In this document: in pieces, positions 549 to 23,044 of the stretch
How the letters are laid out: every line of letters starts with the position of its first letter
Position numbering within the stretch: the first letter of the stretch is position 1
Assembly (NCBI GenBank): GCA_018221175.1
Contig: JAAOYE010000077.1
Location: forward strand, 1-34,623
Direction: 5' to 3'
Source: Candidatus Woesearchaeota archaeon
Lineage (GTDB): Archaea; Nanobdellota; Nanobdellia; Woesearchaeales; BM511
Length of the DNA: 34,623 nucleotides
The notes under the pieces: generated by a model
The model's input: only the letters and a program-made list of their open reading frames with translations
What the model was told of the DNA's origin: nothing
The model's database searches: none
Made by a program: the position numbers and the translations under genes

Positions 549-2015
549 ATGGCATACATCCATTATTTTAGAGAAATCACAGCAAACGATGTGGACAAAG
601 TAGGTGTCAAAGGGGTTAACATCGCATCGCTTTCTCCACACGTAAAGGTTCCGCCAGGATTTGTTATATCTACAAAAGCATACATAGATTTCTTACAAAA
701 AGCAAAGCTTAAGAAAAAAATAGAGACAGCGCTTCAAAAACTGGACTTTAAAAACACTCAAAAAGTTGCCAACCAAATCCAAAAGGTAATTGTCGAGGCA
801 AAGATGCCAGTTGAAATCTCAGAAGAGATACTCGAAGCTTACGAGGCATTGTGGTTTGACTCAAAAGGCGCAGACAACCTCATCGAAGAGACAAAAGAGG
901 CAAATGTTAGTGTAAGGTCAAGCTATGTTAAAGAGAAGAAAATTGAAGGGTTGTCACAGCTTACTTTTTTAAATATTGAAGGAAAAGAAAGGCTGATAAA
1001 AGCAATAAAAGTCTGCTATGCAGCGCAGTTCACAGCACAAAACATAGAGGCAAACAAGAATCTGGATGGGATGGCAATAGTTGTGCAAAAAATGGTTGAC
1101 GCTCAAAAATCAGTCCAGTCATTTTCATACAATCCAAACAATAATGACTCTTCAGTTCTTTTTATCGAGGCAATATTTGGTCTTGGAGAAGGATTTACGC
1201 TTAGAGACACAGTATTTGATGTATATACTGTTGATAAAAAGAATTTGGATATTAAAGATATGTTAGTGGCTGAGCAGTCCAAAAAACGCGTTCTTGATCC
1301 TGAGACTAAAAAGACAATATCTATTCTTTTAAAGGATTCTGGGAAAAAACAAAAGCTTAACGATATTGAAGTAAGAGAGGTTGCGAGGCTTACTAAGAAA
1401 ATCGCAACGCTTTTTGACTCTGAGCAAAGAGTTGAGATCGCTATTAAAGGCGAAGAGTTCTTTGTTTTGCAGTCAAAGAAGGTTAGCGGGAAAATTTCAG
1501 TTGAAGAGCCAGAGGATGTAAAAATTCAAGAGTTTGACACAGAAAAAACAGAAGAAGTGGCAGACTCAGATGTTGAAATAGTTGCTCCAAAAGAGGACTA
1601 CCTTGAAACTCTTTCAGATGAAGTTACAGATTTACAGGCGCCTTTAGAAAAGGATGAAAAAGTAAGCTTTGATGAGGAAGAAGAACCCAGGGTTGAAGTA
1701 GAAAAACAAGAAGTGCCTCAAGAGGATAAAATAGATTTAACCTTTTTTGAAGAAGACAAGACTGACGACGACTTTAAGATAAGAGACGAACCAGAGCCCA
1801 AACCTTTTTTAGAAGAAGGCGAAGAATTTGAAGAAAGTCCTGCACAAGAAGAACAAAGCAGCGAAACTGATAGTGCAGATAAATCAGAACCTGAAGAAGA
1901 AAGTGATGACTCTATTTTCTCATCATTTAAGTCTGGCGACGATGACCAAGAAGAGGATGATGAGCAAGAAGAAGAAAAAGACGAATCTCCTTTTGACAGG
2001 TTTGGGACAGAGTGA
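549..2015 (+). CDS. PEP-utilising enzyme N-terminal (PPDK_N, ATP-grasp) domain protein with a long acidic C-terminal tail; no phosphohistidine or PEP-binding domains
   Basis: The N-terminal ~320 aa align by eye to the PEP synthase/PPDK nucleotide-binding domain (VGVKGVNIASL, VPPGFVISTKAY, VSVRSS, VVQKMV, GLGEGF, FFVLQSKKV). The last ~165 aa are E/D/K-rich low complexity. Confidence 0.7.
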   Translation: MAYIHYFREITANDVDKVGVKGVNIASLSPHVKVPPGFVISTKAYIDFLQKAKLKKKIETALQKLDFKNTQKVANQIQKVIVEAKMPVEISEEILEAYEALWFDSKGADNLIEETKEANVSVRSSYVKEKKIEGLSQLTFLNIEGKERLIKAIKVCYAAQFTAQNIEANKNLDGMAIVVQKMVDAQKSVQSFSYNPNNNDSSVLFIEAIFGLGEGFTLRDTVFDVYTVDKKNLDIKDMLVAEQSKKRVLDPETKKTISILLKDSGKKQKLNDIEVREVARLTKKIATLFDSEQRVEIAIKGEEFFVLQSKKVSGKISVEEPEDVKIQEFDTEKTEEVADSDVEIVAPKEDYLETLSDEVTDLQAPLEKDEKVSFDEEEEPRVEVEKQEVPQEDKIDLTFFEEDKTDDDFKIRDEPEPKPFLEEGEEFEESPAQEEQSSETDSADKSEPEEESDDSIFSSFKSGDDDQEEDDEQEEEKDESPFDRFGTE

Positions 2016-7755: not shown

Positions 7756-7944
7756 ATGGCTAAGAAAAGCCTAAATAATATTAAATTAAGTAATAGTGTT
7801 AATCAATATGATGGATTCTATCATCTTAAATTTAGTTTAGTTTCAACAATTAAATTAAGACTTTCTCACTGGACATTTGTGGTCGTGACATTTATAAATA
7901 AGTCTTTTATATTGTTTCAAAGAAAAGTTAGCGATTTAAGATGA
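7756..7944 (+). CDS. Small hypothetical ORF (62 aa) coupled to the LAGLIDADG gene
   Basis: GGGAG lies 9 nt upstream of the ATG, and there is an ATGA overlap with the 7941 start. The sequence is uninformative and the AT-rich context makes a chance ORF possible. Confidence 0.3.
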   Translation: MAKKSLNNIKLSNSVNQYDGFYHLKFSLVSTIKLRLSHWTFVVVTFINKSFILFQRKVSDLR

Positions 7945-9191
7945 AAAAAATAATTCAACCAAAAGATTGGCAAAAAATACTAATTGGTATTAGGAAAAAA
8001 AATAATTACAGTCAAACAACTCTTGCAAAAGAGTTAAAATTATCAAGAAATTCAGTAAGCAGATTTGAAGCATTGCAAAGATTTCCAAATAAAGAATCTA
8101 AAGAAAAAATCGTAAACTATCTAATATTAAAAAATTATAATATTAATGAATTGATAAATAAAGGAACTAATTATTCTAATGAATATAAAACCAGAAGAAT
8201 CAAATCAGAATTAAACTTAAAGCTTTCAGAAAAACTAGCAGAATTAATAGGAATAATTCTTGGTGATGGTGAAATTAGAAGTGATGGGACTATTAGGATC
8301 TCATTTGATCCTAAAAAAGATGTTAACTATATTGATAGAAGAGTAATAGCATTAATTCAATCTATCTTAGGAAATAAAGTTTATTTTGAAAGTGAAAAAC
8401 GAATCTCATTTGGAAATATAAGTTTTATGAGGTACTTGAAAAGTATCGGGCTTCCTTCTGGAAGCAAATTTGAAAACAATATCAAAATTCCTTCTTTATT
8501 TTTTAAAAATAATAAATATCTCTGTGCAGTACTGAGAGGATTGTTTGATACAGATGGATACTTTGGTTATCTAAATGGTTCCTTAGAGCTAATGCTTGGA
8601 AGATTCTCAGAAAAATCTGTAAACCTTGTTAATGATATTTCACTAGCTTTGAAAAAATTAAATATTAAACACAAAATAATTACTTCAAATGACGGTCAAT
8701 TTAAAGTAAGATTAACAGATAAATTAGAAATAATTCGGTTTTTCTCAATTATTGGCTCGTCTAATCTGAGAAACATTGTTCGATTTCTTTTATGGAGAAT
8801 AAATAAATACGAAGCAAAAATCGAAATTGAAGGATTTCATAACTTATTATTAAAAGCAAAAAAAATAGATAAAAACATTGAAAATATTTCTTTTCCATTC
8901 TTATGGAATCAAAATAACAAGCAGTTTAAAAAATACATAAAAGAAGATGAAATTGAAATTAAAGGCTCAAAATTAAGAGATAACTATTCATGGTCAAAAA
9001 TAGTTAAAGAGTTAATTAATAAGAGAGGTCAAGAATCAATTGCTAATCATTTCAAAATCACAAAAAGAAGTGTGAGAAAATGGAGAGAAGGAAGTAGAAC
9101 TCCTTCTAAAAAATACATCTTAAGTTTATTAAAGATGTCGGAGGAAAATAAAATGAAAATAAACAAGTATAAGGTGATAAAAAATGGCTAA
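7941..9191 (+). CDS. Free-standing LAGLIDADG-type homing endonuclease flanked by N- and C-terminal HTH segments
   Basis: Two LAGLIDADG motifs: LAELIGIILGDGEI (nt 8235-8276) and LRGLFDTDGYFG (nt 8532-8567). XRE-like HTH YSQTTLAKELKLSRNSVSRFE near the N-terminus and IANHFKITKRSVRKWREG near the C-terminus. The stop overlaps rpl11 codons 2-3. Confidence 0.8.
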   Translation: MKKIIQPKDWQKILIGIRKKNNYSQTTLAKELKLSRNSVSRFEALQRFPNKESKEKIVNYLILKNYNINELINKGTNYSNEYKTRRIKSELNLKLSEKLAELIGIILGDGEIRSDGTIRISFDPKKDVNYIDRRVIALIQSILGNKVYFESEKRISFGNISFMRYLKSIGLPSGSKFENNIKIPSLFFKNNKYLCAVLRGLFDTDGYFGYLNGSLELMLGRFSEKSVNLVNDISLALKKLNIKHKIITSNDGQFKVRLTDKLEIIRFFSIIGSSNLRNIVRFLLWRINKYEAKIEIEGFHNLLLKAKKIDKNIENISFPFLWNQNNKQFKKYIKEDEIEIKGSKLRDNYSWSKIVKELINKRGQESIANHFKITKRSVRKWREGSRTPSKKYILSLLKMSEENKMKINKYKVIKNG

Positions 9192-11664: not shown

Positions 11665-12391
11665 TTTTCTTCCAATCAACATCTAATTCTTCCAATATAT
11701 CCACGACTTTTTGCTTATGCTCTCCAAGCCCTTTCCAGTCAACAATTACTAACTCTGACTTTGGAACAGTCCGCTCCATAGCTTTTCTTAATTTAACCAC
11801 GTCCAAACTTTTCAAGCTGTACTTTGGGCAAACATGACTAATAGCGATATCACTCTTCAATATTATTTTTTTAAAATTAGGCGTGTGATGAAGACCGCCA
11901 ATACCAACAGCACTCTTATAACCTTTTACTTCAGTACTTATAATCTCCTTTATCACATCAGCAATAACTTTGCCAGCATCTTCTCTTATCCATTCATTTT
12001 CACTGCTTCCAATCTCAATAAACATGCACGGCTTAGAAACAAACGGCCCGTGATGGGTGCATTCTAAAATTACTTCAAAACCTTCCAACTTTTTATTCTC
12101 AAGCAGCTTCATCGCTTTTTTTAAAAGATTCGCAGGAGCAACACAAACCTCGCCATCCTTGCCGCCAAACTTTGCTTCTCCCCAATTCCCAGGGGTATGA
12201 ACACTAAGCGACGCCACCCCAGACTTTGCCTGATGTTTTGTAGCAAAAATCAAGATGTCTGCATCTACTTCTTTGTCAATATTTTCTGCAAAGATAGTTT
12301 CATCATCAATGACAATAACATCATCAAGAAACTTCTTTATATTCATCCCAGCAGGGTCTTTTTTAGAAACAATAACTGCAAATTTCATCAT
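11651..12391 (-). CDS. dtdA: D-aminoacyl-tRNA deacylase, archaeal DTD2 type
   Basis: MKFAVIVSKKDPAGMNI N-terminus and the ECTHHGP motif are typical of DtdA. There is an ATGA overlap with the upstream debranching-enzyme gene. Confidence 0.8.
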   Translation of the reverse strand: MMKFAVIVSKKDPAGMNIKKFLDDVIVIDDETIFAENIDKEVDADILIFATKHQAKSGVASLSVHTPGNWGEAKFGGKDGEVCVAPANLLKKAMKLLENKKLEGFEVILECTHHGPFVSKPCMFIEIGSSENEWIREDAGKVIADVIKEIISTEVKGYKSAVGIGGLHHTPNFKKIILKSDIAISHVCPKYSLKSLDVVKLRKAMERTVPKSELVIVDWKGLGEHKQKVVDILEELDVDWKKTKDF

Positions 12392-14208
12392 CCAAAAAGC
12401 TCATTTATCATTGCAACATAAGTTGAAGAACTCCATGCCTGAGAGATTGAACCTTCAGCTCTTTGCTCTTTTGCACTCGAGAGTTCGGAAGCACATCCTA
12501 TTGCTCCCAGCCTTAAGATGTCCTCGGTGCTAGCCTTAACTATGTCTTTTATGTATCTTGAAAAAAGTCGCCTATCAACTTTGTGCAGACACATTGCAGC
12601 AATGTTATTTACAAAGTACCATGAGTCACCCCTGTGATAGCTTCTGTCTTCCATTCCAGTGTACTCATCCAAGAATAGAGGGTTTGTTTTGTCAATTGTA
12701 GAAACGCCGCCCCACTTAAGCCAAAGTGCAAAAAGGGTGTTTCTAAAAACCTGCTTCCATTCTTTTCTTTTCAAAAGTTCTGGATATATATAGTATGCCA
12801 AAAAAACATTTGGTCTTATGGTAGGATCATTATGTCCGTCATACAAAGTTCCATTATTGAAAAACAAGGACCTCACTTTTTTTCTCATTTCTTTTTCCAA
12901 AGCTTCATACCTTGTAAAGTCAGGGTCATCGATATACAAACAAAGGTCTTTTGCGACTTTTAGCATGTTTAGGGTGAGTGCCTGTATTTCAATTCTCGCG
13001 CCGTCTCTTGGGTCATTTCCAACATCTGTATCCATCCAAGTCTCTTTTTTTCTGTTAATAGTTAGGTTTTTTCGCACATAATATCTCAAGATTTTTTCAA
13101 TAGAGTCTTTTAATCTTGATGTAACTACAGAGATTTCGCCATCATTCCAGTAATTTGAGAGCTGCTTTTTTCTTTGAAGAGAGTAAAACACGTCTCCAAA
13201 ACTTTTGAAAACCCAGCCGACACCATCGGCTGTGCCAAGCGCTGAAAAAGGAGTTTTGTTTGGAGTTCTTCCATCAGCAAGGATTTTTGAGGTTTGGCGC
13301 AAAAGAATATTTTTTACCAGGTCATGTCTTTTTTCATTAATCAATCCACCAAGAGAAATCGCCTCATCCCTTGCCCATATCTGAAAAAACCATGGAAGAC
13401 CAGCATAAAAACCTTTTAGGCCGTCTATTTCTACATACAGGTCGTCAAGTGCTTTTATACTGCATTTGTAGGCAGTTTTTATCTTTCTTGAGATTTTTTT
13501 CTTTCTAAAAAGAATGATTAATTCTTTTTCCTTTTGGCTTTTTAAGTGATGATGGCTGTAGTAGATATAATTTGCTTCATTCATTGCCTCTTCCTTGCTT
13601 TTTGAAACACTAATTGATATACGGCAGTTTCCTTTAATCTGAAACAATAATGCTTCATATATAGGAAAGCTAAAAGGAGCGCTTTTTCTTTTCTCATCAA
13701 AGCGAAACCTGTAATCTTTGTATCTGTTAAGTTTTTTTATAGGCGCATCTGATTTTATGGCCAGGTAGCGGACAAATTCCTTGCCTTTTTTAAATTTGAC
13801 AATAACAAAGTTGTTTTCTTCACTTATAGTGTATTTTTGGCCTTGTGTTGCAAAATCATGAATGTATCTTATGTCAAGTGTCAATAATGCGTTTCCTTTG
13901 TAGTTGTCAACTTCATACATCAGCGAGTTGTTGTAAAAAAACAATTTCTCGCTTGCTTTGCCATGCTTTTTTTCAATGCCCCACAAATGATATTTTATTA
14001 GGCTTGGAACCTGGCTAATAGACAATGTATCAACGCTTTTTAGAAGGTCCCAGGCTTTTTTTTGCATTTCAAGTGTGCAAAGACCTCTGTATTTTGTGTC
14101 TTTATGGTCTAAAAAGTACCCTCCTTTCTTGTTTGTGAGCAGGAAGTTTGGCTCTATAACTTCTTCTTCGATTTTTTCTTCTTGAATATCATATATTACG
14201 CGCGCCAT
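12388..14208 (-). CDS. Glycogen debranching enzyme, archaeal amylo-alpha-1,6-glucosidase type (GDE_C)
   Basis: GLPWFFQIWARDEAISL (WF..(W/F)GRD-like block), ETWMDT, RDGARIEIQAL, YHRGDSWYF and SQAWSSS blocks are characteristic of the (alpha/alpha)6 GDE family. Confidence 0.8.
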   Translation of the reverse strand: MARVIYDIQEEKIEEEVIEPNFLLTNKKGGYFLDHKDTKYRGLCTLEMQKKAWDLLKSVDTLSISQVPSLIKYHLWGIEKKHGKASEKLFFYNNSLMYEVDNYKGNALLTLDIRYIHDFATQGQKYTISEENNFVIVKFKKGKEFVRYLAIKSDAPIKKLNRYKDYRFRFDEKRKSAPFSFPIYEALLFQIKGNCRISISVSKSKEEAMNEANYIYYSHHHLKSQKEKELIILFRKKKISRKIKTAYKCSIKALDDLYVEIDGLKGFYAGLPWFFQIWARDEAISLGGLINEKRHDLVKNILLRQTSKILADGRTPNKTPFSALGTADGVGWVFKSFGDVFYSLQRKKQLSNYWNDGEISVVTSRLKDSIEKILRYYVRKNLTINRKKETWMDTDVGNDPRDGARIEIQALTLNMLKVAKDLCLYIDDPDFTRYEALEKEMRKKVRSLFFNNGTLYDGHNDPTIRPNVFLAYYIYPELLKRKEWKQVFRNTLFALWLKWGGVSTIDKTNPLFLDEYTGMEDRSYHRGDSWYFVNNIAAMCLHKVDRRLFSRYIKDIVKASTEDILRLGAIGCASELSSAKEQRAEGSISQAWSSSTYVAMINELFG

Positions 14209-14214
14209 TTTAAT

Positions 14215-15207
14215 TTATTGATGTACCTGTGATTTATCCCCTAAATCTAGTTTAATATTTAAAGCCTTTTTTTCAAATTTTACCTTTGCATTATTTCCGA
14301 TTAATGAATCTGTTAACATGGCATTTTTTATTGCTGTGTTTTCTCCTATAATTGAGTTTGATATATGTGAGTCAACTACTTTTGAGCCTTTAGCAATAGA
14401 TACATATGGTCCGATAACTGAGTTTTCAATTTCAACATCATCCTCTATAAAAACAGGCGGGCGGATTATATCATCCTTTTGATGGGTGCTTTTTATATGG
14501 CCATGCTCAAGCAAGTATTTGTTTGTCTTGAGAAGGTTTTCTTTTTTTCCAGTATCAAGCCACGCGTCAACAACATTTGCCTTTAATTTGACGCCTTCTT
14601 CTACCATTAAAGCCATGGCATCTGCAAGCCTGTACTCTCCTTTTGATGTCATTTTTTCTTTTTGTATTTTTTCTAAAAATCTAAACATAACTTTTGCGTC
14701 TTTGAAATAATAAAGTCCGATGATAGCAAGGTCTGACTTTGGATTATCTGGTTTTTCTTCAATTCCTTTTATTATTTTGTTTTCAACCTCAAGTATGCCA
14801 AATCTCTTTGGATCATCTGTTTTTGAGGCCCACACAATGCCCTGGGCATCTCCAATGTTGTCTATATCTTTTTTTATGTCAGTAATGAATAATGTGTCAT
14901 TAAAACAAATAATTACGTCATCATCTATCTTGTTGTTTGCAAGGTATAAAGCATGGCCGTCTCCAAGAAGCTCTGTTTGTTTTAAGTATGTTGTTTTCAA
15001 CTCATAGCTTTTTTTTATATATTCTTTTATCTGGTCTTCCATCTCGCTTACAATAAGCAAGAATTCATTTACATTAAGAGGGCTTAAAAACTCGATGATG
15101 TGTCCAAGTATTGGTTTTCCAGCCACATGAAGCAAAGGTTTTGGCTTTGAGTATGTGTGCGGCCTAAGTCTTGTACCTTTTCCAGCAAGCGGAATTATTG
15201 CTTTAAT
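14215..15207 (-). CDS. Sugar-1-phosphate nucleotidylyltransferase (NDP-glucose pyrophosphorylase-like) with a left-handed beta-helix C-terminus; apparent ATT start
   Basis: The track ORF starts at TTG 15135 and lacks the nucleotide-binding loop. The same frame upstream encodes KAIIPLAGKGTRLRPHTYSKPKPLLHVAGKP, with no ATG, GTG or TTG before an in-frame TAA (15232-15234). ATT at 15207-15205 lies 7 nt after GGGGAGAGGGG and would give MKAIIPLAGKGTRL. Confidence 0.75.
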   Translation of the reverse strand: MKAIIPLAGKGTRLRPHTYSKPKPLLHVAGKPILGHIIEFLSPLNVNEFLLIVSEMEDQIKEYIKKSYELKTTYLKQTELLGDGHALYLANNKIDDDVIICFNDTLFITDIKKDIDNIGDAQGIVWASKTDDPKRFGILEVENKIIKGIEEKPDNPKSDLAIIGLYYFKDAKVMFRFLEKIQKEKMTSKGEYRLADAMALMVEEGVKLKANVVDAWLDTGKKENLLKTNKYLLEHGHIKSTHQKDDIIRPPVFIEDDVEIENSVIGPYVSIAKGSKVVDSHISNSIIGENTAIKNAMLTDSLIGNNAKVKFEKKALNIKLDLGDKSQVHQ

Positions 15208-15278: not shown

Positions 15279-16247
15279 TTAATCTTCTCCCCGATAAAAC
15301 TTTGCAGCGTTTTCTGGCGTTATCGTGTTTATGATTGTTCCAGTCGTGTATTCAAACCCTGCCCATTTTGCAAGCCGGGGAAGTATCTCAATTCTAAAAT
15401 GAAAGTCATGGTCAAAAGATCTTGAAATCTTATAGACTATGTTGTACGCAGGGTAATTAAGCTTGTTTAGGGTGCCAAGCAGTGATTTTAATAACTTTGC
15501 AAGAGAAATAATCTCTTCTTCACAAAGCTCTGTTAAGGAATGATGGCATTTCTTTGGCAAAATCCAGCACTCCAATGGAAATCTTGATGCGTAAGGCGCA
15601 AACGCAATAAAATTTTCATCTTGAAAAACGCTTCTCTCACTCTCTTTTTCTGAATCAATTATCTTGCAATAAGGACATCCACCAATGATTTTTCTCTGTT
15701 TTCTAACAGCAGTAAATTCATCTCTGATTTCTGTTGGCAAAAGATTGTATGCAACAAGCTGGTGGTGGGCATGAGAAAGCGATGCTCCAGCTTCGCCTCC
15801 CCTGTTTTTAAAAACAGCAACGTACTCCGCCCCTTTTTTATAGTTGTCATTAATCCGTCTGTTAATCATCCTGATGATTTCTACAATATAATATTCATCC
15901 AAATCCTCCATTTCCTTTCCGTGGTCAGGGGTTTCAATAACCACTTCGTGCTCGCCAACACTATCGCCAAACGTGTAGAACTCATTGTCTGTTCTTATCT
16001 CTTTGTTTGCTCCTGGAGCTGCTGCTTTGTACTTGTTCCAAATAGCTCTCACAACCCATTTGTCATCTCTTTTTATCTCTTCAATCACGCCAGGTATCAT
16101 GTGCTCGTTTCCAGGGCAAAAAGGGCATTTTTCTTTTGGGCTGACTTCTTTATCATGCTTTGAAGAAAATTCCATGGGTCTTTTGCTGCGTTCAGTAGCT
16201 ATAATTACCCATTTGTCCAAAATATAATCTTTTCTTATTTGAGGCAT
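15279..16247 (-). CDS. galT: GalT-family (HIT-like) hexose-1-phosphate nucleotidyltransferase or NDP-glucose phosphorylase
   Basis: CPFCPGNEH zinc motif and SHAHHQL (HxHxQ) active site. Start taken at ATG 16247, 1 nt after the glycogen synthase stop, with GGGGGA as SD. Confidence 0.8.
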   Translation of the reverse strand: MPQIRKDYILDKWVIIATERSKRPMEFSSKHDKEVSPKEKCPFCPGNEHMIPGVIEEIKRDDKWVVRAIWNKYKAAAPGANKEIRTDNEFYTFGDSVGEHEVVIETPDHGKEMEDLDEYYIVEIIRMINRRINDNYKKGAEYVAVFKNRGGEAGASLSHAHHQLVAYNLLPTEIRDEFTAVRKQRKIIGGCPYCKIIDSEKESERSVFQDENFIAFAPYASRFPLECWILPKKCHHSLTELCEEEIISLAKLLKSLLGTLNKLNYPAYNIVYKISRSFDHDFHFRIEILPRLAKWAGFEYTTGTIINTITPENAAKFYRGED

Positions 16248-16248
16248 C

Positions 16249-18033
16249 TTATCCCCCTGAGTCAATTGCCTTATTGTGTGCTTCGATATAATTATTTACA
16301 AGAATCGTCCAGTCTGCAAGAAGTGAGAGTTCTTTTGCAGCAATCTTTTGATTCACCCTTTGAGTTTTGTTCATGGATGCAAATGTGTGAAGTATTTCTG
16401 CAAACTCATGAATAACTTCTCCTTCATCTTTTTGAAATCTTTCCAGAACATAAATTCCTTTGCCTTTTTCTTTGGATACCTTTTTTATGAATCTGCCAAA
16501 CCCAGCAAAGTCAGTGGTGATTGCAGGAACGCCAAGCGCGGAGCATTCAAGAGGAGTGTATCCCCATGGCTCATAGTAGCTTGGAAAAACACCTAGGTGG
16601 CAGCCTGAAATTGCTTCATAGTATTTGAGGTTTAGTATTCCATCAGACTCGGCAATGTATGTTGGATAATAAATAACTTTTACTTTGTCTTCTTCTAAAT
16701 TCAAAAGACCCTCACTTTTAAAAGCTTGAATAATGGTGTCATTTCCATCAGCAACCAGATTGTGCGTGCTAAACGGGGGGACATCTCCCTGTTTTAGAAA
16801 ACTTTGCACATGCTTTTTTATAGAGAGTAAAAAGTTTTTAGATAGTAAGCTATCAATTTTGGGAACTTCACCTGAGGCAAGGTCTCGTATTAGCCTGGTT
16901 TTTACAGTATCATTTTGGTTTTCAACATCTTTTTTGATTTCTTGAAATATGTTTTTGTTTTGAAGCACGCTTGTTCTTATGCCGTGCGTTGCGTTTGGAA
17001 CAAAGAAAAACGAGAAAATCGTTTTTTTTGATTCTTCTTTTTTCATTCTCCTGTTAAGCTCTCCAAGTGCTTTTATATAGATATCAATGCCTTTGTTTCG
17101 AAACTCTGGCCTGCCAATTATCATAAAGTTTAGGCTTTGCTCAAGGTCGATATTGTAGTAGGGGTTAAAATAGTATGACAAGAAATCCCTGATGACTTCT
17201 CTTGTGCCTTGGTGTTTTACTGATGTTTCTTCAAATGTCGGGAATTTTTGTATGTCAAGACCGTTTAGTACAAGAACACCAGGCTTTTTTTCAAGAATTT
17301 TCTCTGCTTCATAACCTGTTGTTTCTGATACTGTTGTAAAAACATCGCAGTTTTGAGCGCATGCTTTTTCTGTTGTGTACTTGTCTACGACCCTATATTT
17401 TTTTGCCATTGCAGGCGCATCGATGCCTTCAAGCATAGCATAAAGATCTTCTCCGCTGCCAGATATAGCCCTGCCCAGCATTGTTGCGTGTGTTGTAAAT
17501 ACTGATCTCACATTTGAATTGTTGAGCTTTAAATATAATAATGCTATTCCAGCAAGCCATTCATGGTAGTGTCCTACTATTTTTCGCGAGCCAAATTTTT
17601 CTCCAATTTTTTGCAGGAGTTTTCCAACGCACCATGCCCAAATCATTGGTTCTGTATAGTCCCAGGCGGCAAATAGTGTGTCAACTCCAAAGTTGTCCCA
17701 TAATTCTTTTTTTATGCCGTCTTGCCAATCCATGCATTTTTTAAAGTCAATTAGTATTACTTTTGGCCTTCCTTCAATTAGCCACTCACCGTATATGCAT
17801 TCAACTCCTTCATTTCTTAGTGCGTCAAATATATCTGTGTATTCGTCTGGCGCTGGCATCTGTTCCATTGCAATATCTGCTTTTTCTGGGTAGTATGGTC
17901 CAATAGCTGTATAGTCGTTGTATCTTTCCATCATAACAGCTGCTTTTGAAGATAGAACTGTGTATATTCCTCCTACCTTATTGCATACTTCGTATGAAAC
18001 TTCAAATAATTTGTCTGCTTTTGGTTTTATCAT
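16249..18033 (-). CDS. Glycogen synthase, GT3 (eukaryote-like) family
   Basis: LFEVSYEVCNKVGGIYTVLSSKA...IGPYY is the hallmark GT3 N-terminus. Start set at ATG 18033-18031, which overlaps the upstream stop (TAATG). The track extension to 18120 lies inside the upstream gene. Confidence 0.85.
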   Translation of the reverse strand: MIKPKADKLFEVSYEVCNKVGGIYTVLSSKAAVMMERYNDYTAIGPYYPEKADIAMEQMPAPDEYTDIFDALRNEGVECIYGEWLIEGRPKVILIDFKKCMDWQDGIKKELWDNFGVDTLFAAWDYTEPMIWAWCVGKLLQKIGEKFGSRKIVGHYHEWLAGIALLYLKLNNSNVRSVFTTHATMLGRAISGSGEDLYAMLEGIDAPAMAKKYRVVDKYTTEKACAQNCDVFTTVSETTGYEAEKILEKKPGVLVLNGLDIQKFPTFEETSVKHQGTREVIRDFLSYYFNPYYNIDLEQSLNFMIIGRPEFRNKGIDIYIKALGELNRRMKKEESKKTIFSFFFVPNATHGIRTSVLQNKNIFQEIKKDVENQNDTVKTRLIRDLASGEVPKIDSLLSKNFLLSIKKHVQSFLKQGDVPPFSTHNLVADGNDTIIQAFKSEGLLNLEEDKVKVIYYPTYIAESDGILNLKYYEAISGCHLGVFPSYYEPWGYTPLECSALGVPAITTDFAGFGRFIKKVSKEKGKGIYVLERFQKDEGEVIHEFAEILHTFASMNKTQRVNQKIAAKELSLLADWTILVNNYIEAHNKAIDSGG

Positions 18034-18884
18034 TAGAATCCCATTTTTAGTAGTAAGGCGGCAACTATCCCAACTACAATCCCAATAAGCAGTCCAAACA
18101 AAAATTCTTTTTTCATGCATTCAAAGAATTTTGGACAAAAGTGTCTTGCGTCCCCTGCTTGTTTTGCTACTTGCGTGGCTGTCTGTGGTTGGGTGCCTAG
18201 TGTGGCATCTGTGCTCACTGCCGGTTTTTGTTCTGGTGGCGCAGTTTCTGCTGCAGATGGCTGTGTTGCTTCTGTGGGCTGAGCAGGTTCTTGAGGAGTG
18301 CTTTGTTCTTTTGTTTGTTCCAGTGGAGCCTGGCTTTGTTCCCCTTGATTTTCTATGGGTTGTTGTTCTGGCGGTGCCCCTTCCTGTTTAGGTTGTTCTT
18401 GTGGCTGCTCAACTGTTGGTTGTTGGGCTGTCTCTGTTTGTTCATGAGGTCCATCTGAAGGCTGAGCAGAATCTGGCGCTGTTGATGTTTCAGTTGAAGA
18501 TTGTTCTGTCTGTACTGGTTCTCCTCCAGCGGCGCTTTTAGCTTCGCCATTTTGTTCTGGTGGTGCTTCTGTTGCAGCTACGGGTTGGACATCTACAGGA
18601 GGCTTTTCTAAAGCGTCTCCAGCGCCTAAGCTGTCAAGCTTTTCCTTTACAGCTTGCGCTATCTCAGATATCTCTTTTTTGTCAGAAATATTTGCTGCCA
18701 ATTCTTCATCTTTTAATACTTCCTTAATCCAGTCAGAATAATCGTTTCGAGTATCTGTAAGATGGCTTTTTGCTGTCTCCTCATTTGCAGAGTCAATTAG
18801 TGCATCGTATAGCTCTTTTAGGTCCATGACCTTTTTATCCCCTAAATAAAAACTGTTATGGTCTTCTGCTCTTGTTAGTTCCAT
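18033..18884 (-). CDS. Unknown-function protein: conserved ~80-aa N-domain, ~165-aa P/Q/E/T-rich spacer, C-terminal TM anchor
   Basis: GAGGT lies 9 nt upstream of the ATG. The N-domain is paralogous to the next gene. Spacer DNA (about 18134-18632) is locally GC-rich, with APPEQ three times. The C-terminus is CPKFFECMKKEFLFGLLIGIVVGIVAALLLKMGF. Confidence 0.7.
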   Translation of the reverse strand: MELTRAEDHNSFYLGDKKVMDLKELYDALIDSANEETAKSHLTDTRNDYSDWIKEVLKDEELAANISDKKEISEIAQAVKEKLDSLGAGDALEKPPVDVQPVAATEAPPEQNGEAKSAAGGEPVQTEQSSTETSTAPDSAQPSDGPHEQTETAQQPTVEQPQEQPKQEGAPPEQQPIENQGEQSQAPLEQTKEQSTPQEPAQPTEATQPSAAETAPPEQKPAVSTDATLGTQPQTATQVAKQAGDARHFCPKFFECMKKEFLFGLLIGIVVGIVAALLLKMGF

Positions 18885-18885
18885 T

Positions 18886-19194
18886 TTATTTACCTCTTTT
18901 TTTCACTATGTGTTTTAAGATTATTATCTGAGTCTTCATAGGTTCTGTAGTTTTTTCTAATTCTTTTGCCAAAGATGGCTCTTCAAACACTTCCTTTACC
19001 CAGTTTGCAAAGTCATTCTTATCTTCATTCACATGATGAAAGAAGACTGCATCACTAATATCATCAAGTGCATCTGCAAGACCTATTAGGCTTTTGATGG
19101 CTTTTCCTTCTACTGTATAGAAAAATTTTTCTGGATTTGAAACTTTTAACTTGGTCTTTTTCGATTTCTTTTTCACAGTTTTTTTCTTTGACAT
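18886..19194 (-). CDS. Unknown-function small protein, paralog of the N-domain of the 18033-18884 gene
   Basis: GAGGTGA lies 5 nt upstream of ATG 19194. Shared pattern with its neighbour: FY..(x)K...L.DAL.D...(x)H...ND(F/Y)..W(V/I)KEV....LA. Lys-rich N-terminus. Confidence 0.65.
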   Translation of the reverse strand: MSKKKTVKKKSKKTKLKVSNPEKFFYTVEGKAIKSLIGLADALDDISDAVFFHHVNEDKNDFANWVKEVFEEPSLAKELEKTTEPMKTQIIILKHIVKKRGK

Positions 19195-19253
19195 TAATTT
19201 CACCTCTTCTTCCCACAGGAGCTTTTTTCCCTGAAAGGTTATTTATCTGTTGA

Positions 19254-20537
19254 TTATGAAACATGGTCAAGCACAAGGCTTGAAGGCCTCTCACTTATTT
19301 CAAAGGGCTTTTTTAATTTCGTGTTTTTGGCACTAGCAATTTTATTGATTTGTGCCTTTTCTTTAAGTCTGATTATGATATCATTTAGCACGTTCATGAA
19401 GTTAATGTATGAGTCGTACGGGCTGTCATACGGATTGAAATACTTATGAACATCGCCGTCTGCAAACCATTTTGTGCACATATAGTAAAAATGGTCGCTT
19501 GTGGTAAGCAGCTCCCAATCTTTTATAAGATTCTCATCTCCTGACTGCTTTACAACCTCACCAATCAAATAAAGCTCTTTTGAGGCTGCACGCTGCATCC
19601 CATTTCCAAGCCAGGCAGTAAGATCGCGCTCAACATCTGCCCAGCTGATAAAATTGTGGATGTCAAGCTCAGCCTTTGGCTCATATTTTTTTATGACTTC
19701 TGATGGCAGCAAAAACTCATTGTCATGGTGCTTTAGGATTTCCCAAGGCATCTTCTTTAAAAAATCAAAGATACCAGTATCTTCCCACTGGTGTTCTCCA
19801 AGAGTTTCATAATCCATGAAAAGATTGACTACTTCTCCATTTCCATTATTATTTGACACCCAGTCAGCAAATTTTTCTGATGTCAAGGGCCATCCTTCCC
19901 ATCCTTTGTTTGAAAACCTAAATGCTATATCATCTGAAAGCTTGTAGTTTTTTAGCATCAGCTTTAGTTTTTTGCAGGTCTTTGGGGTGTATAAAAAGTT
20001 TGGGCTTCTCCAGTCTAGGATGTGGTCTGCGCCCTCTGCAAGTATCGCATCGTATCCCATCTTTTCAACATGAAAAGCAAGCTCATTGTTGTAGACTAGC
20101 TCTGTGTTTCTAAATATTGTAGGAGTAAAGTTAAATAGCTCTTTCATCTTGTATTTGTGCTTTTTTACCTGCCTTTTAAACTCATCTTTGTCATACAAAA
20201 ATGCTAGGGAATGGTAGTATGTTTCGTTTAAAAACTCAACTTTGCCAGTCTTTGCAAGCTCTTTAAAAGAGTCCAGCACTTCTGGGGTGTACTTTTCAAA
20301 CTGCTCAATAGCAGTGCCTGATATTGAAAAAGCAACTTTGAATTTTCCATCAGTATTATTGATTAAATCCAAAAGTATTTTGTTTGCCGGCAAATAGCAT
20401 TTTTTGGCTACCTTTTCACATACTTCCCTGTTTTTCTTCTCATCAAAATAATCATGGCTATGACCTATGTCAAACACCCTGTACTTTTTTATTCTAAAAG
20501 GCTGATGAACCTGAAAATAAATGCAAACACTAACCAT
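19254..20537 (-). CDS. Glycoside hydrolase family 57 (alpha-amylase / alpha-glucan-acting enzyme)
   Basis: YFQVHQPFRIKKY N-terminal block and MDYETLGEHQWE block are typical of GH57. Start set at ATG 20537, 1 nt after the upstream TAG. Confidence 0.8.
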   Translation of the reverse strand: MVSVCIYFQVHQPFRIKKYRVFDIGHSHDYFDEKKNREVCEKVAKKCYLPANKILLDLINNTDGKFKVAFSISGTAIEQFEKYTPEVLDSFKELAKTGKVEFLNETYYHSLAFLYDKDEFKRQVKKHKYKMKELFNFTPTIFRNTELVYNNELAFHVEKMGYDAILAEGADHILDWRSPNFLYTPKTCKKLKLMLKNYKLSDDIAFRFSNKGWEGWPLTSEKFADWVSNNNGNGEVVNLFMDYETLGEHQWEDTGIFDFLKKMPWEILKHHDNEFLLPSEVIKKYEPKAELDIHNFISWADVERDLTAWLGNGMQRAASKELYLIGEVVKQSGDENLIKDWELLTTSDHFYYMCTKWFADGDVHKYFNPYDSPYDSYINFMNVLNDIIIRLKEKAQINKIASAKNTKLKKPFEISERPSSLVLDHVS

Positions 20538-20538
20538 A

Positions 20539-21777
20539 CTATGAGACACCCCCTGCATAACTAATTGCGTGATTATAAGCATCAATGACTTTCTTTGCCG
20601 GAACGTCCAAGTTGAAATTGTCTGCTTCAACAAGCGAATTGTCCCTTAATTCATTGTATAAATTCCTATATTTTAGAGAGCCCACAATCTTGTTTGTCAT
20701 CTCGTCAATATCCCAAAAGTCAACTTTTAAAACGTTTGTAAGGACCTCTGATGCCCCAGAATTTTTTGATAAAATTACTGGTGTCCCGTTTTTTATTGAT
20801 TCAATTGCAGTAAGTCCAAATGGCTCTGAAACAGACGGCATCACAAACAAGTCTGCCATTTTGTAAGCGTCATGGACTTCTTTCCCTTTCAAAAATCCAG
20901 TAAATACCATGTTGTTTGTTATTTCCATCTCCGCGCTTTTTTCTATCATCCAGGCAAGCATGTCTCCAGATCCTGCCACTACAAACTTGGTGTTGGGAAC
21001 GTAGGCTAGGACTTTTTTGGCAGTCTGCAAAAAGTAGTCAGGGCCTTTTTGAAGCGTTACCCTGCCTAAAAACAATACTATTTTGTCATGGTCTGACATC
21101 TTTGAGGTGTAATCTCCTTGGTAGTGCGGATTTTCAGGGTCTATTCCCCAATGAACCACTTTTATCTTTTTTGGGTCTATCATATACTGGTTGATTATGT
21201 TTTGCTTGGTGTAGTTGCTATTTGCAATAACAAGGTCTGCTTCTTTTAGCCCTTCAAATTCTTTATGGCTAATATGATAGTTTGGGTTATTTCCAGTTCT
21301 GTCAAATTCTGTTGCATGGATATGGCACACTAGCGGTTTTCCAGAAACTTTTTTTGCGTTAATTCCCGCCCTGTACGCCATCCAGTCATGCGCATGAATA
21401 ACATCATGTCCTTCCTGCTCAGCTATTACCTTTGCGATTTCTGAAAACCTCTGTACTTCTGAGTGAAGATCTTCTCCATATGCTACGTCTCCTTTTGTTC
21501 CAAGTATTTTATATCTTCTCATGTAGTCTGCGTATGACTCAGATGTGTTATAGGCAAGAAGCGGAGAGTCGACTGTTCTAATCTTTACGTTTTTCAAGTA
21601 GTTGTTTGTTCCAAGAAGATTTACAAATTCTGCCTCTGCGCCTTCTGGCGCTTTTGGCATTACAAAGGTGACTTTGATTCCTTGTCTTGAAAGCCCTTTT
21701 GTTAGGTCGTAGCATGCAGTCCCAAGACCACCGCTTTTAAACGGTGGGAATTCCCATCCAAACATCAAGACTTTCAT
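20539..21777 (-). CDS. GT-B glycosyltransferase (GT4/GT5), glycogen/starch-synthase-like
   Basis: MKVLMFGWEFPPFKSGGLGTACYDL (K-x-GGLG motif as in GlgA-type synthases) and C-terminal E-x7-E-like PSVSEPFGLTAIES. SD AGAGGA lies upstream. Confidence 0.75.
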   Translation of the reverse strand: MKVLMFGWEFPPFKSGGLGTACYDLTKGLSRQGIKVTFVMPKAPEGAEAEFVNLLGTNNYLKNVKIRTVDSPLLAYNTSESYADYMRRYKILGTKGDVAYGEDLHSEVQRFSEIAKVIAEQEGHDVIHAHDWMAYRAGINAKKVSGKPLVCHIHATEFDRTGNNPNYHISHKEFEGLKEADLVIANSNYTKQNIINQYMIDPKKIKVVHWGIDPENPHYQGDYTSKMSDHDKIVLFLGRVTLQKGPDYFLQTAKKVLAYVPNTKFVVAGSGDMLAWMIEKSAEMEITNNMVFTGFLKGKEVHDAYKMADLFVMPSVSEPFGLTAIESIKNGTPVILSKNSGASEVLTNVLKVDFWDIDEMTNKIVGSLKYRNLYNELRDNSLVEADNFNLDVPAKKVIDAYNHAISYAGGVS

Positions 21778-22046: not shown

Positions 22047-22706
22047 ATGGAGCTAGACATGTTCTTTTCAGAGTCCAAATGGAACATCTTATCAGAGCTG
22101 TCAAAAGCTCCAAAATCACCAATTGAACTCTCAAAAATATTCAATACAACCGTTGCAAATATCTCCCAGCAATTAAGGCTCATGGAAGCGCTTGGAATAG
22201 TAGCAAAGACCAAGATTTCAAATTCAAAAAAAGGCAAGCCAAGAACACAATACTTCATCAAAGATGACATCTATTATATGGTTAGGCTTGGAAAAAACTT
22301 TGCAACAAAAAAATCAATAAAGCCAGAACCACATAGCGCATACATCTTCAATGTCTTTTCAAAAATAGAACAAAAAGACCACTACTGCTTTTTCAAATTT
22401 TTTTGGAACAATTCAAAAATATTATCAAACTCATCAATAGGCCTATACAAAAACACAGACAAAACAATAGAGTTTTTTATAATAACAGAAGACATAGAAA
22501 AAGCAAGAAAAACACTTTCAAATCAAGAAGTAAAACAGTTTTCTGGCAAAGCAAGAAAAGTTATATGCTGGTCTCACAACAAATTTGAAATAGACAATGG
22601 GCTTGGCTCAAACGACCCGCATTTTATGAACATGATAAAAGAAAGCACCATCTTGCTTGATAAAACACGCTGCTTGGAAAAGTACATGGAGGCAGTAAAA
22701 AAATGA
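22047..22706 (+). CDS. ArsR/wHTH-type transcriptional regulator with an unknown C-terminal domain
   Basis: WNILSELSKAPKSPIELSKIFNTTVANISQQLRLMEALGIV is an ArsR-like HTH. The remaining ~140 aa are unassigned. Confidence 0.6.
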   Translation: MELDMFFSESKWNILSELSKAPKSPIELSKIFNTTVANISQQLRLMEALGIVAKTKISNSKKGKPRTQYFIKDDIYYMVRLGKNFATKKSIKPEPHSAYIFNVFSKIEQKDHYCFFKFFWNNSKILSNSSIGLYKNTDKTIEFFIITEDIEKARKTLSNQEVKQFSGKARKVICWSHNKFEIDNGLGSNDPHFMNMIKESTILLDKTRCLEKYMEAVKK

Positions 22707-23044
22707 ACAGGCTCTCAAAAATCATAAGCGATTTATCCTTTGAAGAACTCAAATTAATCCAAAAAGATTTGGTTGAAGGCAACATAGAAAAATTAATAAA
22801 TAAAAGGATTAACCACTACGAAGAAGGGGGAAAAACAATTTGTCCTATATGCCACACAAATATTATAGATACACAATCAGATGGATTCACTCTCCTTTTT
22901 GGTCCAAAGGACTTTCGGCGCAAAGCAACTTTTTGTGCAACAGACTGTCTTGACTACTTTGTAAAAAACTTAAAAAACCTAAGCGAGGAAAAAGTCAAAA
23001 AAGGTGAAATTTATGGTACTAGCAGAGATGACAAGGATATTTGA
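22703..23044 (+). CDS. Small Zn-binding protein with a TRASH/MYM-like C-x2-C...FC-x3-C...F motif
   Basis: CPICHTNIIDTQSDGFTLLFGPKDFRRKATFCATDCLDYF. ATGA overlap with the upstream regulator, and GGAGG lies 10 nt upstream. Confidence 0.5.
   Translation: MNRLSKIISDLSFEELKLIQKDLVEGNIEKLINKRINHYEEGGKTICPICHTNIIDTQSDGFTLLFGPKDFRRKATFCATDCLDYFVKNLKNLSEEKVKKGEIYGTSRDDKDI

Follow-up and report, generated by a model that had tools for sequence, protein, structure and literature searches.

What do two small adjacent genes contribute to an archaeal glycogen operon in which they stand between a GH57 enzyme and a GT3-type glycogen synthase? This question is raised by a stretch of 34,623 nucleotides from a Candidatus Woesearchaeota archaeon (contig JAAOYE010000077.1; the whole 34.6-kb stretch analysed is hereafter called the window), in which gene A (18886-19194, minus strand, 102 amino acids) is directly followed by gene B (18033-18884, minus strand, 283 amino acids). 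Archaeal GT3 glycogen synthases are uncharacterised, and their priming, regulation and organisation are an acknowledged open question (Chem Rev 2024, PMC11046441). An earlier reading of the letters alone, referred to here as the original prediction, had proposed that the two genes share a domain dedicated to alpha-glucan metabolism, with one soluble copy and one copy held at the membrane, and that this pair could serve the synthase as scaffold, primer or localisation factor.

The A and B proteins belong to the OrfY/DUF5752 family (Pfam PF19027) by profile, motif and fold, the fold being modelled for A. Our hypothesis, for and against which we see the balance as about even, is that the two act as a pair of adaptors, themselves without catalytic activity, and bring glucan enzymes to the membrane, presumably by binding them.

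Domain and family of the A and B proteins

Both genes are preceded by a Shine-Dalgarno sequence, GAGGTG just 5' of ATG 19194 for gene A and AGAGGT for gene B, and the stop codon of A and the ATG of B lie one base apart. For gene A, ATG 19194 is the likelier start, because the alternative GTG at 19203 falls within the Shine-Dalgarno sequence GAGGTG. In run X3, which represents a related strain (~97% identical), a 1-base insertion was found at the A/B junction (18883) and a 16-base deletion near 19206, just 5' of A and around the predicted Shine-Dalgarno sequence and the alternative GTG; the reading frames of A and B are intact in both cases.

The A protein is soluble and basic and consists of a lysine-rich, disordered N-terminal tail (residues 1-20, net charge +10), a single repeat of the OrfY/DUF5752 domain and a C-terminal helix, TQIIILKHIVKK. 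Its closest named relatives are from Candidatus Woesearchaeota. In the B protein, the domain occupies residues 5-85 (18630-18872, minus strand) and is followed by a linker and a C-terminal membrane helix. A BLASTP comparison of A with B resulted in an E-value of 2e-6 (36% identity over 39 amino acids). Additionally, a profile of 81 family members from which B and its close orthologues had been excluded matched B residues 5-85 with 55.7 bits (E 2e-19). As this B-free profile still matches B, the similarity between A and B is neither chance nor circular, and the predicted pair of tandem genes with a common domain was confirmed.

The original prediction had suspected an already catalogued domain of unknown function, and Pfam and profile searches identified it as DUF5752/PF19027. 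Specifically, A scored 22.5 bits against PF19027 (E 8.2e-5) and just missed the gathering threshold of 23 bits, and no PF19027 match was obtained for the domain of B. The PF19027 model comprises 208 positions and two repeats, with matches at positions 53-81 and 132-188. A and B contain one repeat each; the two-tandem-repeat layout of OrfY and of the Pfam model is absent from them, and the repeats are split over adjacent genes. A two-repeat model gives a single repeat about half the score, which explains why A fell just below the threshold and B was missed. Neither protein was matched by any NCBIfam model. A phage or defence origin of the two genes was also considered and rejected: the matches of A to phrog_8250 (E 3.6e-4) and of B to PADLOC PDC-S05 (E 0.006) were weak, and no relatives were confirmed in IMG/VR. 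The family phrog_8250 is a virus protein family without assigned function.

A profile built from A, B and three relatives retrieved 294 proteins from a word-indexed database, most of them with a precomputed PF19027 assignment and several named "DUF5752 family protein". In an exhaustive search, the same profile matched 4,822 cluster representatives (50% identity) at E 0.001 or better, many of which are from DPANN archaea. A larger family profile matched one solved structure, 4CSO, OrfY of Thermoproteus tenax (E 7e-8), in which it covered two repeats (residues 25-88 and 132-190). The same structure was found by fold comparison. In the AlphaFold2 model of A (mean predicted local distance difference test score, pLDDT, 82.8), residues 1-15 are disordered and are followed by two short strands and five helices; the top Foldseek matches of this model were 4cso_A, B and D (probability 0.99-1.00, 26% identity, root-mean-square deviation 3.1 Å over 80 columns), and no convincing match besides 4CSO was found in the PDB, the next probability being 0.13 or less. 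For the domain of B, homology predicts an OrfY-like fold.

Both proteins share a core motif that consists of F in strand 1, H(H)V, 4-6 residues, ND[FY]..W and then L; in B it takes the form SHL..T.RNDYSDWIKEV. Across the family, the columns F25, N60, D61, W65 and L75 are invariant, and L39, H54, V55, F62, A63 and N64 are nearly so.

The domain occurs in diverse surroundings. Many of the best 150 representatives contain two or three copies. Among 20 longer family proteins scanned with Pfam, four are fusions to KaiC-type ATPases (P0130, P0133, P0164, and P0165) and two large ones combine the domain with a HerA/DUF87 ATPase and CarboxypepD_reg repeats (P0123 and P0153); most of the remainder have uncharacterised N-terminal parts, which in those read are acidic and coiled-coil-like. 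Furthermore, in giant membrane proteins the domain forms the N-terminal, cytoplasmic part directly ahead of the first membrane helix (L030:10004-20230, 3408 amino acids; L052:9983-13585). Loci from Bacteroidales and Chloroflexi had no glucan genes as neighbours of the domain. Judged by these sequences, DUF5752 looks like a general adaptor or recognition module of which particular subfamilies were recruited to the GT4-GH57 cluster. The claim that the domain is dedicated to alpha-glucan metabolism was therefore abandoned, since the roughly 4,800 representatives include KaiC-like and HerA-like fusions as well as non-glucan loci.

Linker and membrane helix of B

The linker of B (residues 91-247; 18144-18614, minus strand) comprises 157 residues, of which Q accounts for 17%, P for 15%, A for 15%, E for 13%, and T for 11%. 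Its net charge is -19, and residues 1-90 of B are acidic as well (net charge -11). The pentapeptide APPEQ occurs at residues 107, 170, and 215; any 5-mer was found three times in 21 of 20,000 shuffled sequences. Tandem Repeats Finder detected no tandem repeat in the linker DNA. The guanine + cytosine (GC) content of this segment is 0.507 compared to 0.362 for the window, with values of 0.75, 0.54, and 0.24 at codon positions 1, 2, and 3, respectively. As the excess sits at the first two positions and the third reaches only 0.24, the GC richness is a by-product of the amino acid composition, and a foreign origin of the linker was rejected on the same value for the third position. In orthologues of B, the linkers vary from 11 to 268 amino acids and differ in composition, so the role of a tether alone appears to be conserved.

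The linker is followed by a juxtamembrane motif, HFCPKFFECMKKEF (residues 248-261; 18102-18143, minus strand), which is kept in close orthologues. The pattern RHFCP[KR]FF[ED]CMKKEF, with one histidine and two cysteines, was found in P0005, P0015, P0020, P0025, P0068, P0101, and P0104, and looser cysteine-containing variants in L002, L003, L013, L023, L061, and L081. A conceivable role of this motif is to bind a metal or to act as a redox site once B forms an oligomer.

The transmembrane helix itself, LFGLLIGIVVGIVAALLL (residues 262-279; 18048-18101, minus strand), contains a G-x3-G-x3-G-x3-A glycine zipper. The hydropathy over 19 residues peaks at 2.99, and only the four residues KMGF lie beyond the helix. 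The first 60 residues of B peak at a hydropathy of 0.09 and contain no hydrophobic segment, which indicates that B has no signal peptide. B thus has the layout of a tail-anchored protein, with one hydrophobic helix less than about 30 residues from its C-terminus and neither a signal peptide nor a further membrane segment, and 38 distinct relatives are laid out in this way too. Since there is no signal peptide and only four residues follow the helix, a tail anchor with domain and linker on the cytoplasmic side would, by topology rules, be the only plausible topology. The predicted P/Q/E/T-rich and GC-rich spacer with three copies of APPEQ and the tail helix were both recovered as described.

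The tail helices of the family share features beyond hydrophobicity. The pattern G-x3-G-x3-[G/A/S] was present in 32 of 38 distinct tail-anchored family members compared to 1 of 111 control open reading frames (ORFs) with a C-terminal hydrophobic stretch. In the 38 members, the helix is followed by a median of 0 residues, and many of the helices are preceded by a [D/E]-F motif, some by cysteines. By these patterns the family helix is distinct in sequence from a generic membrane anchor. Glycine zippers usually drive helix-helix packing, and for this reason B probably self-associates or docks on a membrane partner via its helix.

The stop codon of B overlaps the start of the synthase gene, as the original prediction had stated. 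In the sequence TAATG (18031-18035, minus strand), the TAA of B (18035-18033) and the ATG of the GT3 gene (18033-18031) share one A. The synthase (16249-18033, minus strand, 594 amino acids) matches PF05693 Glycogen_syn with an E-value of 2.9e-154. The mechanically called GT3 ORF runs 87 bases further 5' to an ATG at 18120 (18034-18120, minus strand) and overlaps the tail of B. The start at 18033 is more plausible, because the orthologue in L001, the nearest orthologous contig, has 593 amino acids and because, counted on the short form, the Pfam match starts at residue 11.

Gene order and paralogy across related genomes

A survey of 80 loci was made with one genome per species; Woesearchaeota and Nanoarchaeota supplied most of them, and a few came from Patescibacteria, Chloroflexi and Bacteroidales. 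ORFs were called in all loci and searched with the window enzymes and the domain profile. Further counts were made on a set of 60 loci with a GH57-DUF5752 arrangement. The loci come from related genomes, and the counts given below are not independent events.

A GH57 gene stands directly 5' of a DUF5752 gene in 48 of the 80 loci, tandem DUF5752 genes were found in 48 and a C-terminal membrane helix in 33. Similarly, a separate metagenome scan showed GH57 directly 5' of DUF5752 in eight of ten loci, seven of these with GT4 too, and GH15 came next in the three that were checked. The predicted linkage of homologues to GH57 and glycosyltransferase genes was thereby substantiated. In the set of 60, the order is GT4, GH57 and a soluble basic DUF5752 protein; GH57 is followed first by the gene of a soluble member of the family, in one case recognised by eye and not by the profile. 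In 50 runs from GH57 to DUF5752, the first gene always encodes a soluble protein, with a basic N-terminal extension of median charge +7 over ~24 residues. A tail-anchored copy accompanies the soluble one in 32 of the 60 loci, so that the predicted combination of a soluble copy with one on a flexible, membrane-held tether is recurrent.

The GT3 gene proved to be a less regular neighbour than had been supposed. The tail-anchored copy lies directly before GT3 in only 9 of the 80 loci (first count); elsewhere GH15, glucokinase, a sugar kinase or a MinD-type gene follows the domain genes. The constant partner of the domain is GT4-GH57, not GT3, and the adjacency to GT3 is lineage-specific. L001 has an order identical to that of the window, namely GT4, GH57, A-like, B-like, GT3 and GalT, with a 4-nt overlap at the B/GT3 junction. 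Its B-like protein resembles B in the N-terminal domain and in the tail (SRHFCPKFFECMKKEF followed by the helix), and its linker is short and rich in K and E. Taken by sequence, the tether of B-type proteins varies and the two ends are conserved.

In 45 of 50 cases, a first-position domain had its closest counterpart among the first-position domains of other loci, and in 22 of 31 cases a tail-anchored domain had it among the other tail-anchored ones; identity within a locus was no higher than between loci. By these comparisons, the sequences mark A and B as products of an old duplication with separate orthologous lines.

GH57 fusion and MinD-type ATPases

Two arrangements in related loci bear on the function of the pair. 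In L051, a 317-kb contig of an uncultured archaeon, a single protein of 501 amino acids (L051:8813-10318) consists of a GH57 domain (E 4.5e-83) followed by a C-terminal DUF5752 domain. This fusion argues that the first-position protein works physically with GH57.

Additionally, a gene for an archaeal MinD-type ATPase was found directly after or between DUF5752 genes in eight loci, in some with overlapping reading frames. The coordinates are L088:6367-7182, L015:7498-8274, L019:8839-9615, L041:10353-11159, L042:10549-11301, L067:10317-11114, and L082:6290-7060 (L082/L083). The encoded proteins contain a KGGVGKTT motif and match the AAA_31, CbiA, ParA and BcsQ families, scoring 33.3 bits against Pfam CBP_BcsQ (threshold 21.3); their closest structures are the archaeal MinD proteins 1HYQ, 1G3Q, and 1ION (E 6e-33). 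Most of them end in basic, partly amphipathic tails, which we take to be similar to the helices by which MinD proteins are targeted to the membrane.

In L088, the MinD gene lies between an A-like gene and GT3 and overlaps the GT3 start, which is the slot of B in the window. Of the 60 loci, 32 have a tail-anchored copy, 8 a MinD-type gene, none both and 20 neither. The chance of zero overlap between tail anchor and MinD was calculated by hand, with no correction for shared ancestry, as ~1 to 3 in 1,000. No MinD-type gene is present in the 34.6-kb window.

The operon and its neighbours

A and B are part of a tightly packed minus-strand operon with the order of transcription GT4, GH57, A, B, GT3, GalT-like, sugar-1-phosphate nucleotidyltransferase and GDE_C. 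The gene transcribed first in the GT4-GH57-DUF5752 triad encodes a GT4/GT5-like glycosyltransferase (20539-21777, minus strand) with matches to the Pfam families Glycos_transf_1, Glyco_transf_4, and Glyco_transf_5. Among solved structures it is closest to Pyrococcus abyssi GlgA and to GlgM, the maltose-1-phosphate synthase; an identity as TreT was rejected, as the best structures are GlgA and GlgM and the Pfam matches listed include no TreT-specific family. The GH57 enzyme (19254-20537, minus strand; PF03065, E 6.2e-80) lies directly 5' of gene A. Downstream of the synthase, Pfam and NCBIfam matches identified a GalT-like nucleotidyltransferase (15279-16265, minus strand), a sugar-1-phosphate nucleotidyltransferase (14215-15135, minus strand) and a GDE_C amylo-1,6-glucosidase (12388-14208, minus strand). 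These three genes are syntenic in L001 and many further loci.

On the plus strand, divergent from the operon, are genes for an ArsR/Lrs14-type winged-helix regulator (22047-22706; HTH_5 and Lrs14 matches) and a cysteine-rich protein of 113 amino acids (22703-23044; cysteines in the arrangement CPIC...CATDC). This pair adjoins GT4 in 9 to 10 related loci and is probably the regulator pair of this operon. By eye, the cysteine pattern of the 113-aa protein resembles a zinc-ribbon or TRASH-type motif.

The remaining genes of the window are archaeal, among them FtsZ, an archaeal-type D-aminoacyl-tRNA deacylase, Elp3 and FKBP26. An ORF of 416 amino acids (7941-9191, plus strand) has an HTH_3 match and a LAGLIDADG_3 domain, like a free-standing homing-endonuclease-type gene, and the sole match of a 488-aa protein (549-2015, plus strand) is the PPDK_N (AMP/ATP-binding) domain of pyruvate phosphate dikinase. 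The window occurs in a sediment metagenome, and ~97% identical relatives occur in marine metagenomes. Run X1, the only run to contain the window and one labelled as metagenomic RNA-Seq, was rejected as evidence for co-transcription: it gave a single 33-kb contig with flat depth and behaves as DNA.

Discussion

The adaptor hypothesis assigns separate parts to the two proteins. A, soluble and basic and with a single domain, would act together with the enzymes GT4 and GH57. B, its old paralogue, would expose the OrfY/DUF5752 domain at the cytoplasmic side of the membrane, where a long tether, flexible and acidic, connects it to the C-terminal glycine-zipper helix. Between them, A and B would recruit the glucan-making enzymes to the membrane or organise them there, namely GT4, GH57 and the GT3 synthase encoded downstream. 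Where a lineage has no tail-anchored copy, the MinD-type ATPase encoded in the same slot would provide attachment or positioning. The scaffold or localisation role of the original prediction is partly sustained, in that it fits the GH57 fusion, the replacement of the tail-anchored copy by MinD and the glycine-zipper helix. On this hypothesis, the domain would bind GH57, GT4 or GT3, A and B may be in contact, and the pair would affect glycogen synthesis.

A broader proposal is more tentative and to our minds possible rather than probable. DPANN and some other archaea may arrange glycogen synthesis spatially with a dedicated module, in which OrfY/DUF5752 would be the adaptor. It would link either the GT4-GH57(-GT3) enzymes or the growing granule to an attachment device that comes in two exchangeable forms: a flexibly tethered tail anchor with a glycine zipper that oligomerises, as in the window, or a MinD-type ATPase.

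Several points weigh against the adaptor hypothesis. The interaction of A or B with GH57, GT4 or GT3 is something that we infer rather than observe. Pairing of one domain with another gained no support from the predicted fold of P0006, a natural two-repeat protein: its repeats were individually confident, the predicted template modelling score (pTM) was 0.54, and Foldseek aligned only the second repeat to 4CSO. The domain is found in many proteins unrelated to glucans, including the KaiC-like and HerA-like fusions, the giant membrane proteins and the Bacteroidales and Chloroflexi loci, and may be a general module. In 20 of the 60 loci, neither a tail anchor nor MinD is present. The charge complementarity of basic A and acidic B is not general, as tail-anchored domains have a median charge of -1. 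The relatedness of the genomes also means that the locus counts are not independent.

The tight linkage to glucan genes could also be read as the mark of a glucan-binding module, in which case A would be a detachable carbohydrate-binding domain for GH57, and B would tether glycogen granules to the membrane in a Stbd1-like manner. The domain in L051 is fused at the C-terminus of GH57, the usual place of a binding module, and several copies occur per locus or protein. The motif H..(4-6)..NDF.NW, in which N60, D61, and W65 are invariant and H54 and N64 almost invariant, provides polar and aromatic residues. Carbohydrate-binding modules are, however, nearly always beta-sandwiches, whereas DUF5752 has a small helical fold that matched no carbohydrate-binding module in Pfam or Foldseek. 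Furthermore, the domain is common in proteins and loci without a glucan link, and the replacement of the tail-anchored copy by MinD is left unexplained. We therefore consider a glucan-binding function rather unlikely.

Alternatively, the MinD-type genes next to DUF5752 genes in eight loci, some with overlapping frames, might mean that the domain serves P-loop ATPases as a partner or regulator, much as ParB, MinE or McdB do. A and B would then act on a MinD-type ATPase encoded elsewhere in the genome, and the link to glucans would reflect the positioning of a cargo such as glycogen granules. The fusions to KaiC-like and HerA-like ATPases agree with such a role, as do the basic N-terminal extensions, since partners of ParA/MinD proteins typically stimulate the ATPase through a basic peptide at the N-terminus. 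Yet the window contains no MinD-type gene, and tail-anchored copy and MinD never occur in one locus, which for B points to substitution rather than partnership. This explanation appears unlikely to us.

The only name given to a solved relative suggests a third possibility. The depositors of 4CSO labelled it 'ORFY PROTEIN, TRANSCRIPTION FACTOR', and A and B might accordingly be transcription regulators, with A binding DNA via its lysine-rich tail and the membrane-tethered B sequestering A and releasing it on a signal. The tails of A-type proteins (median +7 over ~24 residues) are rich in K, A and P in the manner of histone H1, and a domain that binds nucleic acid could well be fused to HerA-like and KaiC/RecA-like ATPases, as this one is. 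Against this, Pfam, NCBIfam and Foldseek revealed no helix-turn-helix or other known DNA-binding fold in A or B, a conserved winged-helix regulator already adjoins GT4 in the operon and its relatives, and both the GH57 fusion and the frequent tail anchoring would be unusual for transcription factors. The label is unsupported by any paper found: our literature search returned none mentioning DUF5752, PF19027, 4CSO, or OrfY together with Thermoproteus tenax or trehalose. Kouril and colleagues are said to have reported in 2008 that orfY is co-transcribed with treT, the gene of the GT4 enzyme TreT. A regulatory role seems quite unlikely.

Finally, the primer role raised in the original prediction, taken here to mean that A or B would be self-glucosylated like glycogenin and pass a primer to the GT3 synthase, draws on the need of eukaryotic GT3 synthases for glycogenin, on the open question of an archaeal primer protein (PMC11046441), on the translational coupling of B to GT3 and on the richness of the B linker in threonine and serine, but it is highly improbable, given that Pfam and NCBIfam showed no GT8 or other glycosyltransferase signature in A or B, that a helical domain of ~80 residues is no GT-A fold with DxD, that the family has no conserved tyrosine (NDF in A, NDY in B), that neither sequence nor length of the linker is conserved and that in most loci with the pair GT3 is not its neighbour.

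The domain is not of a new kind, as the DUF5752 family was already catalogued. What the present analysis adds is a conserved, non-catalytic pair in a glycogen operon that is tied to OrfY, the only solved relative, together with three testable clues to its function: the GH57 fusion, the alternation of tail anchor and MinD, and the glycine-zipper helix. Neither these three features nor the tail-anchored subfamily were described in any paper that our literature search found. On the practical side, the two-repeat PF19027 model under-detects the single-repeat proteins examined. If the localisation model is true, the synthesis of a storage polymer in cells with very small genomes would be organised in a way that is new. 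If A and B are part of an attachment module, no earlier system that positions or tethers a storage polysaccharide would have been described in prokaryotes, and a function would be assigned to a domain family of several thousand clusters.

Comparison with known systems

Among known systems, OrfY of T. tenax, the founding member of PF19027, is the one with which A and B have the domain in common by profile (E 7e-8), by fold (A model) and by the H..NDF..W motif. OrfY carries two repeats in a soluble chain of 216 amino acids, whereas A and B carry one repeat each over two genes and B is tail-anchored via a long linker. The context differs as well, being glycogen genes (GH57, GT3) for A and B and reportedly trehalose for OrfY, although the reported co-transcription of orfY with treT would make a GT4 glycosyltransferase a partner common to both. 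With glycogenin, a GT8 protein, the only likeness is that of a small protein beside a GT3 synthase; A and B have neither the GT8 fold nor its catalytic motif nor a conserved acceptor tyrosine.

Three further systems resemble the pair in how it may work. In bacterial cellulose synthesis, an operon-encoded MinD/ParA-type ATPase, BcsQ, small soluble partners and a single-pass anchor (BcsR, BcsE, and BcsF) organise and localise the synthase. The MinD-type proteins of the related loci match CBP_BcsQ, which is a likeness to the BcsQ module. DUF5752, in contrast, has no sequence relation to BcsR, BcsE or BcsF, the product is intracellular glycogen and not a secreted polymer, and the window has no MinD.

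Mammalian Stbd1 (genethonin-1) is built like B from a membrane anchor, a flexible region and a globular domain that faces the cytoplasm, and its proposed role is to tether glycogen metabolism to the membrane. Its anchor is N-terminal and its glycogen-binding domain is a CBM20 beta-sandwich, whereas B has a C-terminal anchor and a helical domain.

McdA/McdB of carboxysomes and archaeal MinD4, which acts on archaella and chemosensory arrays, resemble the related loci in that a MinD-type ATPase is encoded beside small, charged, partly disordered adaptors and cargo genes. In the window, unlike in these ParA/MinD pairs, a fixed tail anchor takes the place of the ATPase. To our knowledge, no positioning of glycogen enzymes or granules by a ParA/MinD system has been described. 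The Bcs, Stbd1 and ParA/MinD likenesses would be the closest functional analogies of the A/B pair, as a resemblance in possible mode of working and not as membership in any of these systems.

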